In this document: piece after piece, positions 50,483-54,852 of the stretch
How positions within the stretch are numbered: the first letter of the stretch is position 1
Layout of the letters: the number at the start of each line of letters is the position of its first letter
From: Candidatus Thorarchaeota archaeon
GTDB taxonomy: Archaea; Asgardarchaeota; Thorarchaeia; Thorarchaeales; Thorarchaeaceae
Reading direction: 5' to 3'
NCBI GenBank assembly: GCA_048884785.1
Contig: JBHLQM010000005.1
Span: forward strand, 25,333 to 89,332
Length of the DNA stretch: 64,000 nucleotides
Made by a program: the position numbers and the translations under genes
Notes under the pieces: generated by a model
Database searches by the model: none
The model's input: the letters and a program-made list of their open reading frames with translations, nothing else
What the model was told of the DNA's origin: nothing

Positions 50483-51199
50483 TCATACTTGATTGCCACA
50501 TTTTCCGCAGAAGCGGTCTCCTGCATCAACAGGATTTCCACAGGTGGTACAAAACCTGCCGCTTCCGCCCTGTTCAGCACCACTTGGAGCTCCTCCTTCT
50601 ATTGGAGCACCACAGTTGGAGCAGCTTGATGCGCGTCCCGCGTTATGACCACAAAATGGACACTTTCCAGCACCCTGAGCTGCAGTGATATTGGCGATTA
50701 TTGAAGGTATGACCTTCTTTTGCTTGAACTTGAACTGCATATTTCCTCCGGATTTCAACTCAACGACGAGTCTGTCTCCGCTTTGAGCAGCTTGACTAAT
50801 AGCAAGTAGAGGGATAGCAATGCTCTCAGTATTCCCATTCTTATCTTTATTATAATAAGAATCACGAGACCATGATGTGATGGCCGCCCCAACCGCCGCA
50901 TAGGTGATTCCTCTACCCACGCCGCGTAGAGCTCTTCCGCCAATTCCACCAACGCTATCGCCAATTGCACCAACTGCCACTCCTGCGGCTATGGCGCCTG
51001 CAACCGCACCAAACTTCTTTGCCGCACCCCACTTTGATGGACTCTTTATCCAGACAAGTCGAATGTCTGTCAGCTCAAATGATCCGTCTTCATTGTCAAA
51101 ATCGACATCTTTCTCACGAACCATCTTCTTCTCGTAGCCAAGTGTGTCTAATCCAGATCCAGAATAAGTAACTGTAAGAAAGGATGGTCTTTCTCCCAT
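50483..51199 (-). CDS. PH/GRAM-like domain with glycine-rich insert plus C-terminal zinc ribbons
   Basis: GSFELTDIRLVW...[G/A-rich segment]...IAIPLLAI...LVVELKSG; CPFCG/CSNCG and CTTCG/CGKCG. Confidence 0.6.
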   Translation of the reverse strand: MGERPSFLTVTYSGSGLDTLGYEKKMVREKDVDFDNEDGSFELTDIRLVWIKSPSKWGAAKKFGAVAGAIAAGVAVGAIGDSVGGIGGRALRGVGRGITYAAVGAAITSWSRDSYYNKDKNGNTESIAIPLLAISQAAQSGDRLVVELKSGGNMQFKFKQKKVIPSIIANITAAQGAGKCPFCGHNAGRASSCSNCGAPIEGGAPSGAEQGGSGRFCTTCGNPVDAGDRFCGKCGNQV

Positions 51200-51293: not shown

Positions 51294-52742
51294 TCACTCC
51301 TCAACTACTACCATCTCGGTCACCTGCGCCTTCTTTTCCAAATTATCCGCAAGTGGTTTTGGATGGCTCAGACCCTTGGCTATCATGGCTACTCCCGCAA
51401 GGGAGATGATGGCACAGAGTATCATTGTCAATGGGAATCCTGCCGCAGGAATGAGCCACCCAAATGTAGCAATCATCGGCATTGCAAATAGAATGCCGAT
51501 GGTTGGAGATAGAGAATACATACTGTTTCTGATCTTATTTGGAATCACGTCGAGTAATTCACGTTGTGTCAATATCTCGGCGAAACCTCCAAAGAAGCCT
51601 GAGGAAATGAATGTGATCGCCATCAGCAGTATTGGAAGAATGCTATTCGCAGGTAGCTGCATGATGGCGATCTGAGTGTACGGAATAGTCAGTATAACCA
51701 TATCAACCCCGACGCTTGCTGGTGGGAAGAAATACATAATGGCTGCAAATGCCATGTAGAAGACAAAGCCAGTTCCCTGAAGAAATCTGAATCTTGGGAT
51801 CCACTTCTTAGGTTCAAACCTTCGCGACCAAACACCACTACGCTCAGTCTGAAAAATCCCTGGTACAAAGAGAATGGTTCTGAAACTTGATACAGCTACA
51901 TCTGTAATTAGGTAGCTGAAGTACATTGGAAATAGGATGAGCTCGCTCCAGACCATGCCAACACTCATCACTAGACAGCCACCCAGTATGATATAGGTGA
52001 CATACTTGTCACTGAAGAGGAAACGGAGACCCTGTTTCAGAATAGCAGTGTATTCGTTCATAGAGGGTTTTTCTTGACGAGTCTCGCGGACTTCAGGAAA
52101 ATCCTTTACCACTCTCAAGACAACAATTGCAATCATCACACACATAACGGCTTGAAACTGAAATACCCAGGAGCGTCCCAAAGCGACAGCAAGTATGCTG
52201 CCAGGAATGAGCACAAGCGTTGCTATAATCTGAAATAACATGCCAACCTTGCCCCAAAACACTCCGTATGCCTTTCGGTCCTTATCACCGGGCATAGCTG
52301 CTCTGTAGTTGTTGTCAAACCAAGCCATGAAGGCGCCGCTCAATTGAGAATTGGCAAACCCCATCATAATGAAGACAATTAGAATATACCAAACGGGGGT
52401 GCTAATACTGATCACCGAAATCATGAAGAATGAAGCAGCGAATGACAAGAAAGATGATGCAATAATATACCGATGTCCGAGATAGTCACCAAGGGCGGCT
52501 GTTGGATAATCAAAGAGGGTTTGAATCGCCATCTGGATAACAATGAGAATACCCATCAAGCTTAGACCTGTAATGAAATCTCCGCCGCCGGCCCACTCTG
52601 CAATGAATATCATGAAGAATGTTGTGCTCAGATTGATTGTTGCAGAGACAATCGGCAGAAGGATTGTGAGAATCTTGCTGAGCTGGAAGATCTTGTCATT
52701 AGCCTCTGCTAGGCCGAAGAACGTCGCAATTCTGCTCATCAT
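51294..52742 (-). CDS. MFS transporter (paralog 1)
   Basis: About 12 TM segments, DYPTAALGDYLGHR (motif A), IPNKIR. Confidence 0.9.
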   Translation of the reverse strand: MMSRIATFFGLAEANDKIFQLSKILTILLPIVSATINLSTTFFMIFIAEWAGGGDFITGLSLMGILIVIQMAIQTLFDYPTAALGDYLGHRYIIASSFLSFAASFFMISVISISTPVWYILIVFIMMGFANSQLSGAFMAWFDNNYRAAMPGDKDRKAYGVFWGKVGMLFQIIATLVLIPGSILAVALGRSWVFQFQAVMCVMIAIVVLRVVKDFPEVRETRQEKPSMNEYTAILKQGLRFLFSDKYVTYIILGGCLVMSVGMVWSELILFPMYFSYLITDVAVSSFRTILFVPGIFQTERSGVWSRRFEPKKWIPRFRFLQGTGFVFYMAFAAIMYFFPPASVGVDMVILTIPYTQIAIMQLPANSILPILLMAITFISSGFFGGFAEILTQRELLDVIPNKIRNSMYSLSPTIGILFAMPMIATFGWLIPAAGFPLTMILCAIISLAGVAMIAKGLSHPKPLADNLEKKAQVTEMVVVEE

Positions 52743-52960
52743 GCCAGTCTCCAGTGATATCTGTACACTTTTACCACAGGATCGTTGCTCTGTGCATAGT
52801 TGATTTCACAAGAGTCTGCTTTGCTGCTGACTTCGGAGTTAGTGTATTTCATTTCATTCGCCTCATTCATACAAAGGCTGGTCACAGTATATGGTAGTAG
52901 TGAGCTTCTGTGACCACTCAGGTGACCAGTAACAATGACAGGCTTCACGACGCGATTCAT
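52739..52960 (-). CDS. 73-aa small protein containing the VSSKA motif, translationally coupled to the MFS gene
   Basis: Starts 5 nt after the 29-aa ORF stop; its TGA overlaps the MFS ATG; NSEVSSKA motif. Confidence 0.5.
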   Translation of the reverse strand: MNRVVKPVIVTGHLSGHRSSLLPYTVTSLCMNEANEMKYTNSEVSSKADSCEINYAQSNDPVVKVYRYHWRLA

Positions 52961-52965
52961 GCTGA

Positions 52966-53055
52966 CTACCTTCTGAAGTAGACTTGGGCAATGGCTTTCG
53001 TAGAAACCAGAGCATTGGATTTCGGGTAAGTCCTTGATAGCTTTGCGAGCGCCAT
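52966..53055 (-). CDS. 29-aa cationic peptide MALAKLSRTYPKSNALVSTKAIAQVYFRR
   Basis: Hand-translated; SD-like GAGGT 8 nt upstream; clearly similar to the adjacent 33-aa ORF. Confidence 0.7.
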   Translation of the reverse strand: MALAKLSRTYPKSNALVSTKAIAQVYFRR

Positions 53056-53061
53056 CTTAGA

Positions 53062-53163
53062 TTACCTCATAACAGTCGCATAGGCGTAGCCTACTGCCTT
53101 GGTCGAAACGACCTGTCTGTTCTTCTTCACGAGTTCAGTTCGGGTATTAGTTGCTAGAGCCAT
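53062..53163 (-). CDS. 33-aa cationic peptide MALATNTRTELVKKNRQVVSTKAVGYAYATVMR
   Basis: Hand-translated; TATA box ~33 nt upstream; paralog of the 29-aa ORF. Confidence 0.7.
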   Translation of the reverse strand: MALATNTRTELVKKNRQVVSTKAVGYAYATVMR

Positions 53164-53195
53164 GATATTTCACAAGAGATTCCCCTCAGATTTGG

Positions 53196-53240
53196 TATAT
53201 ATAGGGGAGCCACATTTTGGGGTCACAGAATAAGGTCACA
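53196..53240 (-). promoter_or_regulatory. TATA box plus three 13-bp-spaced RGYCACA repeats for the peptide-MFS operon
   Basis: TATATATA at 53196-53203; AGCCACA at 53208, GGTCACA at 53221 and 53234. Confidence 0.55.
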
Positions 53241-53288
53241 ATATGTTACTAGCTAGAAGCATATTGCTACCCTATTCTGTCCACCACT

Positions 53289-54761
53289 CTACTCCTGAGC
53301 TGCCTCAATTGAGATTGCTTGGTGCGTTTGAATGGCAGGAATCTCTGCAGCTGCTGTTCGCTCAGATGGCTTTGGCTGTGAGAGGCCCTTCCTTATTATT
53401 TGCACACCAAAGAAGCTGATTATACCTACTACGACAAGTGTTAGTGGGAATCCAGCGATCGGTATGAGCCAACCGAAGAGGGCAATCTGGGGAATGGCAA
53501 ATATCATCGCAATGGTTGGCTGTAATGAATACATGCCATTGCGGATATCATTAGGGATTACATCAAGCATCTCTCGCTGTGTCAGAATCTCAGCGCAAGA
53601 AGCAGCAAGCATTGTAAAGGTGAAGGTCGCCGCAATTAGGACGATAGGTAGCACCGATTGCACAGGTATTGACATGAATACTGTCTCCGTGAATGGAAGG
53701 ACAAGCTCAATGGCCGGAACGGCTGCTGAAGATGGAGGGGGGAAGAAAAACATGATTGCTGCAAATATAATGTAGAATGCAAATCCTCCAGCCTGAAGCA
53801 GTCTGAAACGTGGGATCCACTTTTTGGGTTCGAATTTTCTTGACCAGATACCTGATCGCTCCTGTGTTACGACTCCGGGTATGAAGAGACCGGTTCTATA
53901 CGTAGAAACCGCCACATCAGTTAGTAGGTAGCTGAAATACATCGGGAAGAGCACCAGGTTTCCCCACACCATCACCGTGCTTGCCACAAGCATGCTACCA
54001 ATCACTACATTCTTGACCCAGGGCTCACCCAAGAGATATGATACTCCACCTTTCAAAAGACCGGCATATTCACTTGCTGAAGGTCTCTGATTTCTTGTCT
54101 TTGCCTCTGCCACTTCTGGAAGGTCCCTTACCACACGCAGGACTATGATAGCAATAGCAATACAGAGGATTGCTTGAAGTTGGAACACCCAGGCCCGCCC
54201 TAATATCGCTGCAATAACAGCGCCGGGGATTAGAGAAAGCGTAGCTGCAATCTGAAACATCATTCCAACACGAGCCTGAAATAATCCATATTGTTTCCTG
54301 TCCGCATCTGCAGGAACTGCAACCCTGTAGTTGTTGTCAAACCAGGTTGCCAGTGTTCCGCTCTGTTGAGACTGAGCAAATCCCATCAAAGCATAGATTA
54401 CCACCAAGAGTGAGAGCGGAGATGAGAATGTCACCAGAGAAACGAGGAAGAATGTAATGCCATATGTGATAAATGCTGAAGCTAGAACAAACCTCTGTCC
54501 TACCAAATCAGCCAATGCTCCAGTTGGATAATCTAGTGCAGTTGAAACAATCAATTGTAAAACAACAAGACTTCCAACAATCCCCAGACCTTGTATATAG
54601 CTGCCACCTCCAACAGCTTCTGCAACAAAGATCATGAAGAAAGTGCTACTTATCATCAATGTGAGTGAGAAGATTGGCATGAGAACTGTCATGATTCTTG
54701 CCAAACGCAAGACATTATCATTCGAGTCCGCAAGACCGAAGAATCGTTTTGAGACCTCCAT
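53289..54761 (-). CDS. MFS transporter (paralog 2)
   Basis: DYPTGALADLVGQR; long blocks shared with paralog 1. ATG at 54761 (MEVSKRFFGLA) aligns with the paralog's start. Confidence 0.9.
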   Translation of the reverse strand: MEVSKRFFGLADSNDNVLRLARIMTVLMPIFSLTLMISSTFFMIFVAEAVGGGSYIQGLGIVGSLVVLQLIVSTALDYPTGALADLVGQRFVLASAFITYGITFFLVSLVTFSSPLSLLVVIYALMGFAQSQQSGTLATWFDNNYRVAVPADADRKQYGLFQARVGMMFQIAATLSLIPGAVIAAILGRAWVFQLQAILCIAIAIIVLRVVRDLPEVAEAKTRNQRPSASEYAGLLKGGVSYLLGEPWVKNVVIGSMLVASTVMVWGNLVLFPMYFSYLLTDVAVSTYRTGLFIPGVVTQERSGIWSRKFEPKKWIPRFRLLQAGGFAFYIIFAAIMFFFPPPSSAAVPAIELVLPFTETVFMSIPVQSVLPIVLIAATFTFTMLAASCAEILTQREMLDVIPNDIRNGMYSLQPTIAMIFAIPQIALFGWLIPIAGFPLTLVVVGIISFFGVQIIRKGLSQPKPSERTAAAEIPAIQTHQAISIEAAQE

Positions 54762-54852
54762 AGTTATTGCCTCGACACCACCCACAAGATAGTCTTATGT
54801 ATATAAAGTTTGTGTGACAAACCATTTATTGCTATTATGTTTATTATACAAT

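Follow-up and report, generated by a model that had tools for sequence, protein, structure and literature searches.

Tandem peptide genes between two MFS paralogs

The window analyzed here is a 64,000-nucleotide stretch of a Candidatus Thorarchaeota archaeon genome in which two paralogous MFS transporter genes, 56% identical and both matching the Pfam MFS_1 profile, lie on the minus strand together with the other genes and promoter elements of this locus. The upstream paralog (53289..54761) is preceded by a GGTTTG-N5-CAAAC motif (operator 2, 54799..54823) that abuts its TATA box. The gap that follows opens with an operator array, P1 (53204..53250), comprising a palindrome GTNAC-N5-GTGAC and then two GTG(A/G)C half-sites with 13-nt spacing; next are a TATA box (53194..53203), whose position is invariant across all P1 copies, and a short conserved leader with a TTGTGAA box (53164..53175) ahead of the first ATG. 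Three ORFs then lead into the second MFS gene: peptide A (53062..53163, 33 aa), peptide B (52966..53055, 29 aa), coupled to A by SD/stop overlap, and ORF C (52739..52960, 73 aa). The MFS gene itself (51294..52742, 482 aa) belongs to an uncharacterised family found mainly in Thorarchaeota, and a zinc-ribbon protein gene (50483..51199) is probably the final gene of the same transcript, with a terminator-like hairpin (50457-50436) after it.

The initial annotation of A, B, and C was reproduced in its coordinates and translations, in the spacers of 6 nt (A to B) and 5 nt (B to C), in the SD-like AGG-stop ends of A and B, in the overlap of the C stop codon with the MFS ATG, in the TATA box at 53203-53194, and in the cationic charges of A (net +5) and B (net +6). 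We note that, through a 28-nt inverted repeat (82%; 53225-53280) not seen in aligned relatives, part of the operator array is duplicated within the terminal part of the upstream MFS gene, and that the leader box (12 nt, 53167-53178) recurs without mismatch inside ORF C at 52803-52814. The transporter has both the MFS_1 profile match and the MFS fold; this fold is generic, matching many MFS proteins at 10-16% identity, and no solved homolog was found by sequence. A predicted complex between the MFS protein and peptide A scored 0.02, which speaks neither for nor against binding.

A and B belong to a family of short basic peptides

By their sequences, A and B are genuine genes, part of an undescribed family of ~30-residue basic peptides, 22-37 aa in length. 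Their proposed paralogy is borne out far beyond chance by a family of 214 distinct genes, and the motif by which they were first grouped, VS[TS]KA, is not that of the family, in which the K position is K in only 17% of members. What the family conserves is a core S-T-x-A-[ILV]-x-x-A-Y and, at the C-terminus, Arg (S 76%, T 94%, A 99%, [ILV] 97%, A 80%, and [YF] 97%), and the T, A, and Y/F residues are kept via all synonymous codons. The final residue is Arg in 206 of the 214 genes, and 40 of these 206 use codons other than the SD-forming AGG. Both ends of the peptides are conserved and the middle is variable; an invariant short C-terminal motif beside a variable basic N-terminal half would be the pattern of a linear binding motif. 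Selection on the peptide, as had been suggested from synonymous codon differences, is supported by a family dN/dS of 0.34 (56 disjoint pairs; the relatives are non-independent and the P value hence overstates significance) against pN/pS values of 0.85-1.31 in other frames.

The peptides have a median net charge of +5, are rich in R, K, and N, and are hydrophilic (median GRAVY -0.59), with a hydrophobic moment of 0.50 that is not above that of shuffled sequences (0.55). They have neither an export signal nor a transmembrane helix, the median of the best 15-residue Kyte-Doolittle mean being 0.24. An AlphaFold model of A is a single low-information helix (pTM 0.28), and the small/large alternation of the core is also compatible with a strand.

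Profile searches found the family in 80 of 86 Thorarchaeota-family genomes and, in a comparison across Asgard genomes, in 69/76 Thorarchaeota-family genomes versus 0/224 others; two of the zero-scoring genomes hold diverged copies. The array is not peculiar to the gap between the MFS genes: the genome from which the window derives holds 16 peptides in eight operons, two of them diverged, with further copies on contigs C1, C9, C18, C19, C20, C26, and C62. Adjacent ORFs of the family are separated by 4-8 nt in 73 of 77 cases, which together with the SD/stop overlap supports the proposed translational coupling.

No significant match to Pfam, NCBIfam, or PDB was found for the peptides, and the ESM Atlas gave no usable hit. 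Among 1.8 billion representatives, 45 hits with lengths of 29-88 aa were obtained, of which twelve were examined and are family members; among seven looked up, six are unnamed and one is a 'hypothetical protein'. Among the papers searched on small proteins and RiPPs of Thorarchaeota or other Asgard archaea, we found none that describes the family. The core motif is absent from all larger proteins of the same genome and so gives no clue to mimicry, and we rejected mimicry of an endogenous motif. Identity with a PIP-box (Q-x-x-hydrophobic-x-x-aromatic-aromatic) was likewise rejected, with 0/209 canonical and 12/209 p12-like peptides (the PIP-like boxes of this genome's own proteins are canonical), as was a proteasome HbYX activator (C-terminal hydrophobic-Tyr-X), which 11/209 peptides fit.

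ORF C overlies a probable internal promoter module

ORF C had been read as a third paralog with the same core. Its VSSKA is missing from all eight orthologous last ORFs, and a profile comparison of these last ORFs with A and B gives a probability of 2%. In close relatives the region of C comprises two ORFs. The first overlies a module, P3 (52880..52931), with GGTCAC repeats, a weak TATA-like CATATAC, and GTGACC, and is read in three frames (20/5/5), so the conservation resides in the DNA. P3 alone heads operons on contig C18 of this genome (G000) and at locus L024, at a distance from the ATG about equal to that of P1, and on these grounds we predict that it is an internal promoter, probably with P1 half-sites. 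The second ORF corresponds to the final 37 codons of C (the D segment, 52739..52852) and is conserved solely in its Y-x-Y-x-W end, which overlaps the SD of the MFS gene. ORF C thus looks like a fusion of the internal promoter module with a weakly conserved last ORF and is no established paralog of A and B, although it may be remotely related to them via the C-terminal tyrosines. In genus g3, an extra small ORF with a Y-Y-D-Y end precedes A at the regulator locus (L262, L263, L268, and L274); similar to the D segment, this ORF may connect D with the peptide family.

Most peptide operons are not linked to a transporter

The predicted conservation ahead of MFS orthologs was found: among the closest 15, A/B lie upstream of 11 and P1 of 14, with 30 of 96 in the whole MFS family, and some orthologs keep P1 without A/B. 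In 13 whole genomes, 13 of 66 peptide operons lead into an MFS gene and 53 have no MFS behind them, whereas 31 end in an acidic peptide with a hairpin and T-tract; none of the 66 has both endings, and 5 of the 13 genomes are without any MFS-linked operon. The idea of a peptide-plus-transporter unit therefore stands for the link itself and fails as a general rule. At another conserved locus, an unrelated DHA3-type MFS is coupled behind the peptides, and the non-MFS neighbors of the operons are unrelated convergent genes. The MFS family of the window's transporter extends to f12 and f14, two Asgard families in which no peptides were found. Given the small share of MFS-linked operons, the terminator-ended operons, and the MFS genes in lineages where no peptide turned up, action in trans is the most likely mode for the peptides, and the MFS is most likely a co-regulated, translation-coupled member, optional rather than an obligatory partner.

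The acidic peptides, class E, are 33-46 aa, mostly neutral to acidic, and end in E-V-L-x-L-E-A-T (examples are L037:7398-7520, L039:7054-7161, L041:8032-8145, and L242 on contig C20 of G000). The last codons and stop of E form the terminator-like hairpin, with compensatory changes, before the T-tract, and the loop residues are kept via synonymous codons. Two database proteins of 69-70 aa (P0014 and P0026) join a B-type peptide and E in one chain, possibly hinting at joint action or reflecting a lost stop codon.

Genome G014 carries five cassettes that are 89-98% identical from operator to terminator (L278, L282, L286, L294, and L296), and the sharp ends of homology at the first operator and the terminator suggest gene conversion; five near-identical copies also suggest that amount is more important than diversity. 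A mobile element was rejected, as these copies share the operator-to-terminator sequence alone and terminal repeats are not evident. Beside peptide operons, genes for a RimJ/RimL-type acetyltransferase and for a zinc-ribbon membrane protein of 200 aa are found repeatedly, in varying arrangements (L037, L039, L090, and L143), and at one conserved locus (L350-L352 and L356) the cassette end adjoins a convergent tRNA-like gene.

Promoters and candidate regulators

The full P1 array is present in 73/76 Thorarchaeota-family genomes versus 0/224 other Asgard genomes (with the pattern reversed as a control, the count was 0), and viral contigs hold no exact match to the promoter pattern. P1 is nearly invariant, with the last half-site 53 nt from the ATG end in 73/82 copies. 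Shorter versions lie ahead of MFS paralogs, a multi-pass membrane protein, and a flavin oxidoreductase; a P1-type site precedes a bactofilin-like gene at 11/12 loci; and in the genome studied here a P1-like promoter also lies before an S9 peptidase. From the kinds of genes in this regulon we infer a stress cue. At L238:1415-3193 (G000, contig C59), an HTH_45 gene is followed by a P1-type site and then the 420-aa bactofilin-like beta-solenoid gene. The HTH_45 protein and the C23 paralog are candidate P1 regulators; HTH_45 is also present in 42/157 genomes that have no peptides.

The S9 peptidase with the P1-like promoter (L239:1929-4001; G000, contig C45) resembles a family peptide in its first 25 residues, with a MAHES start, a basic stretch, and a Y-Y-R segment, as if a peptide gene had been fused to it. 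A tldD/pmbA pair lies twice near the system (L240 and L245; G000, contigs C53 and C44), once divergent from an MFS paralog under P1 and once directly after a paralog of the regulator.

A winged-helix regulator similar to PH1932 (E 1e-5) co-ranges with the peptides, being present in 41/43 family genomes versus 2/157 others. It is mostly single-copy and divergent from a peptide operon at 28/30 loci, and this operon is the most widespread of all. Operator 2 abuts the TATA box of the upstream MFS and that of the peptide operon beside the PH1932-like regulator, and it was found nowhere else in this genome.

Discussion

The best explanation of the locus, as read from the arrangement of its elements, is that it represents a single instance of a modular micro-peptide cassette, which would be the main output of a Thorarchaeota-specific regulon. 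Here a four-half-site array and TATA box are followed by the SD/stop-coupled ORFs A, B, and C leading into the MFS; at most other loci the same cassette stands alone, closing with the acidic peptide and terminator. The peptides are hydrophilic, have no transmembrane stretch, are amplified in copy dosage, and pair an invariant motif with a basic tail, and we therefore favor, at just short of an even chance, that they are soluble, dosage-amplified effectors of a lineage-specific regulon and bind a conserved partner, for which our best guess is the PH1932-like regulator. A DNA-binding activator would turn on the regulon genes jointly, with stress or starvation as the probable cue, and the peptides would be made in bulk, remain soluble inside the cell, and act in trans. 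The C-terminal motif and free terminal Arg would dock on one conserved partner, with the variable basic N-terminal half contributing electrostatic affinity. Were this partner the PH1932-like regulator, whose presumed operator also precedes the upstream MFS, peptide binding would feed back on the expression of the transporter and so close a loop; the regulator link may instead be one-way transcriptional control only, against such a loop.

As the closest model of how the loop could work, we propose the phenol-soluble modulins (PSMs) with PmtR and Pmt, which similarly combine short paralogs encoded in several operons with a transporter and with a repressor that may sense the peptides and regulate the transporter (PMC5080381). 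The likeness rests on the shared operator and co-distribution, and peptide-regulator binding in Thorarchaeota is putative. PSMs are amphipathic peptides that leave by ABC export and PmtR belongs to the GntR type, whereas the system here has an MFS, a PH1932/ArsR-like regulator, and no amphipathic excess, and shows neither the amphipathic helix nor the ABC exporter of PSM systems.

The main rival to soluble effectors, a minority possibility in our estimate, is that the peptides are exported signals or antimicrobials: TldD/E or the S9 peptidase would trim the basic N-terminal half, and the 12-14-residue C-terminal core would leave via the MFS. The two unrelated MFS families found in-operon behind the peptides (13/66), one of a DHA3 exporter type, favor export and count against our preferred reading, and export is also consistent with the P1-like sites in this genome at the MFS divergent from tldD/E and before the S9 peptidase. 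Multi-peptide leaderless bacteriocins are patchy in distribution, ABC-exported, and guarded by a membrane immunity protein. Such bacteriocins (aureocin A70, garvicin KS, and cereucins) resemble the Thorarchaeota system as tandem, leaderless, paralogous, cationic ~30-residue peptides with an adjacent transporter (PMC6131525), and the layout argues for export to that extent, with tandem paralogous cationic peptides of 27-34 aa and no leader found here too. However, aureocin A70 and garvicin KS are hydrophobic (GRAVY +0.40 to +0.71; PMC6131525), a character that the peptides, at -0.59 and with no amphipathic excess, do not share; a membrane-active form of the antimicrobial role suggested in the initial annotation fits poorly with these values. 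No adjacent ABC exporter and immunity gene were found, the neighbors being an MFS or the unrelated convergent genes. The family is moreover near-universal, vertical, spread over many operons, and made up of identical copies rather than patchy pherotypes, and the five genomes devoid of an MFS-linked operon also speak against export.

It is unlikely, in our judgment, that the system is a peptide signaling circuit in which ~5-16 paralogs per genome, expressed from a dedicated promoter, would be cut down to their conserved 12-14-residue core, carried by an MFS of the same regulon, and detected by a PH1932-like regulator, an acidic peptide serving as antagonist. In Rgg/SHP and other RRNPP pairs, a regulator gene and a short peptide gene diverge, and the peptide is basic at its N-terminus and conserved at its C-terminus; all of these features are seen here. 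In contrast to RRNPP proteins, the regulator gave no TPR hit, only wHTH hits and PH1932, and unlike in Rgg/SHP systems the peptides lack a hydrophobic segment for export and, in most copies, a regulator gene beside them.

We consider it rather improbable that these are abundant nucleic-acid-binding or nitrogen-storage peptides for dormancy, similar to SASPs or protamines. Their charge and their R-, K-, and N-rich composition would suit this role, as would multi-locus dosage amplification with concerted evolution and a dedicated promoter. Alpha/beta-type SASPs of spores are folded DNA binders of 60-75 aa. They too form a dispersed multi-copy small-protein family with one dedicated promoter type, but the Thorarchaeota peptides are half the size and match neither a SASP profile nor any Pfam, NCBIfam, or PDB family. 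The near-invariant T, A, Y, and terminal R indicate a specific protein-like site, and we know of no dormant stage of Thorarchaeota, which we also count against storage.

That the peptides are soluble modulators of the MFS transporters themselves seems quite improbable, even with operon linkage and promoters shared with MFS genes. SgrT, AcrZ, and MgtS are small modulators of other transporters, and AcrZ and MgtS are membrane helices. The archaeal precedent is sP36 of Methanosarcina mazei, a small protein acting on the AmtB1 transporter (PMC10714827), and the peptides could likewise act on a transporter in trans. All four modulators are single-copy with one target, whereas the Thorarchaeota family is multi-copy, soluble, and mostly transporter-unlinked, and we found no sequence similarity to sP36-type modulators and no transmembrane segment of the AcrZ/MgtS type; a single-helix form of the modulators initially suggested therefore fits poorly. 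The transporters that are linked fall into two unrelated families, the majority of operons have no transporter link, and in f12 and f14 the MFS family occurs where no peptides were found.

A chain of cis-acting uORFs or arrest peptides governing MFS translation, also raised in the initial annotation, is very improbable. The tight SD/stop coupling and the concentration of conservation beside the stop codon would fit it; however, such a chain would always lie upstream of a co-transcribed regulated gene, and most operons here have no co-oriented large gene and are closed by a terminator, 31/66 of them after E, which does not support it as the general rule. MFS orthologs that retain P1 without A/B also argue against it, as does leader RNA that folds no better than shuffles (z 0.32); we rejected an RNA switch because the leader is not unusually structured.

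A PqqD/RRE-radical SAM-SPASM protein (L303:1393-2814) is single-copy and 72-97% identical in 58/76 Thorarchaeota-family genomes, with no evident precursor adjacent and a conserved 135-aa gene of unknown function divergent from it. Maturation of the peptides in trans as RiPP precursors by this orphan enzyme, to which their invariant Thr and Tyr might lend themselves, is highly doubtful, as the enzyme is present in the peptide-poor genus g5 and was not found in the genome studied here or in several peptide-bearing genomes at least 90% complete (we rejected it as an obligate maturase on this ground), no RiPP maturase lies among the operon neighbors, YcaO occurred in 0/31 genomes, and no P450 was detected in the genome studied here. 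A LanC search carries no weight, having given no signal in any control genome.

This layout is shared by no archaeal system described so far, and each of the families tested falls short in a defining feature; the newness rests on the sequence and organization of the genes. New here are the P1 regulon, the operon census with its MFS statistics, and the dissection of ORF C. We conclude that this is a real, undescribed, lineage-wide micro-peptide regulon fitting no tested family, built around a gene family that annotation has missed, that is among the most amplified in an entire Asgard lineage, and whose promoter is conserved almost base for base. Because the peptides are short enough for synthesis and the operators and candidate regulators are named, regulation or signaling by peptides in Asgard archaea could be tested without a cultured Thorarchaeon. 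If true, a peptide signaling circuit of this kind would be without precedent in archaea.
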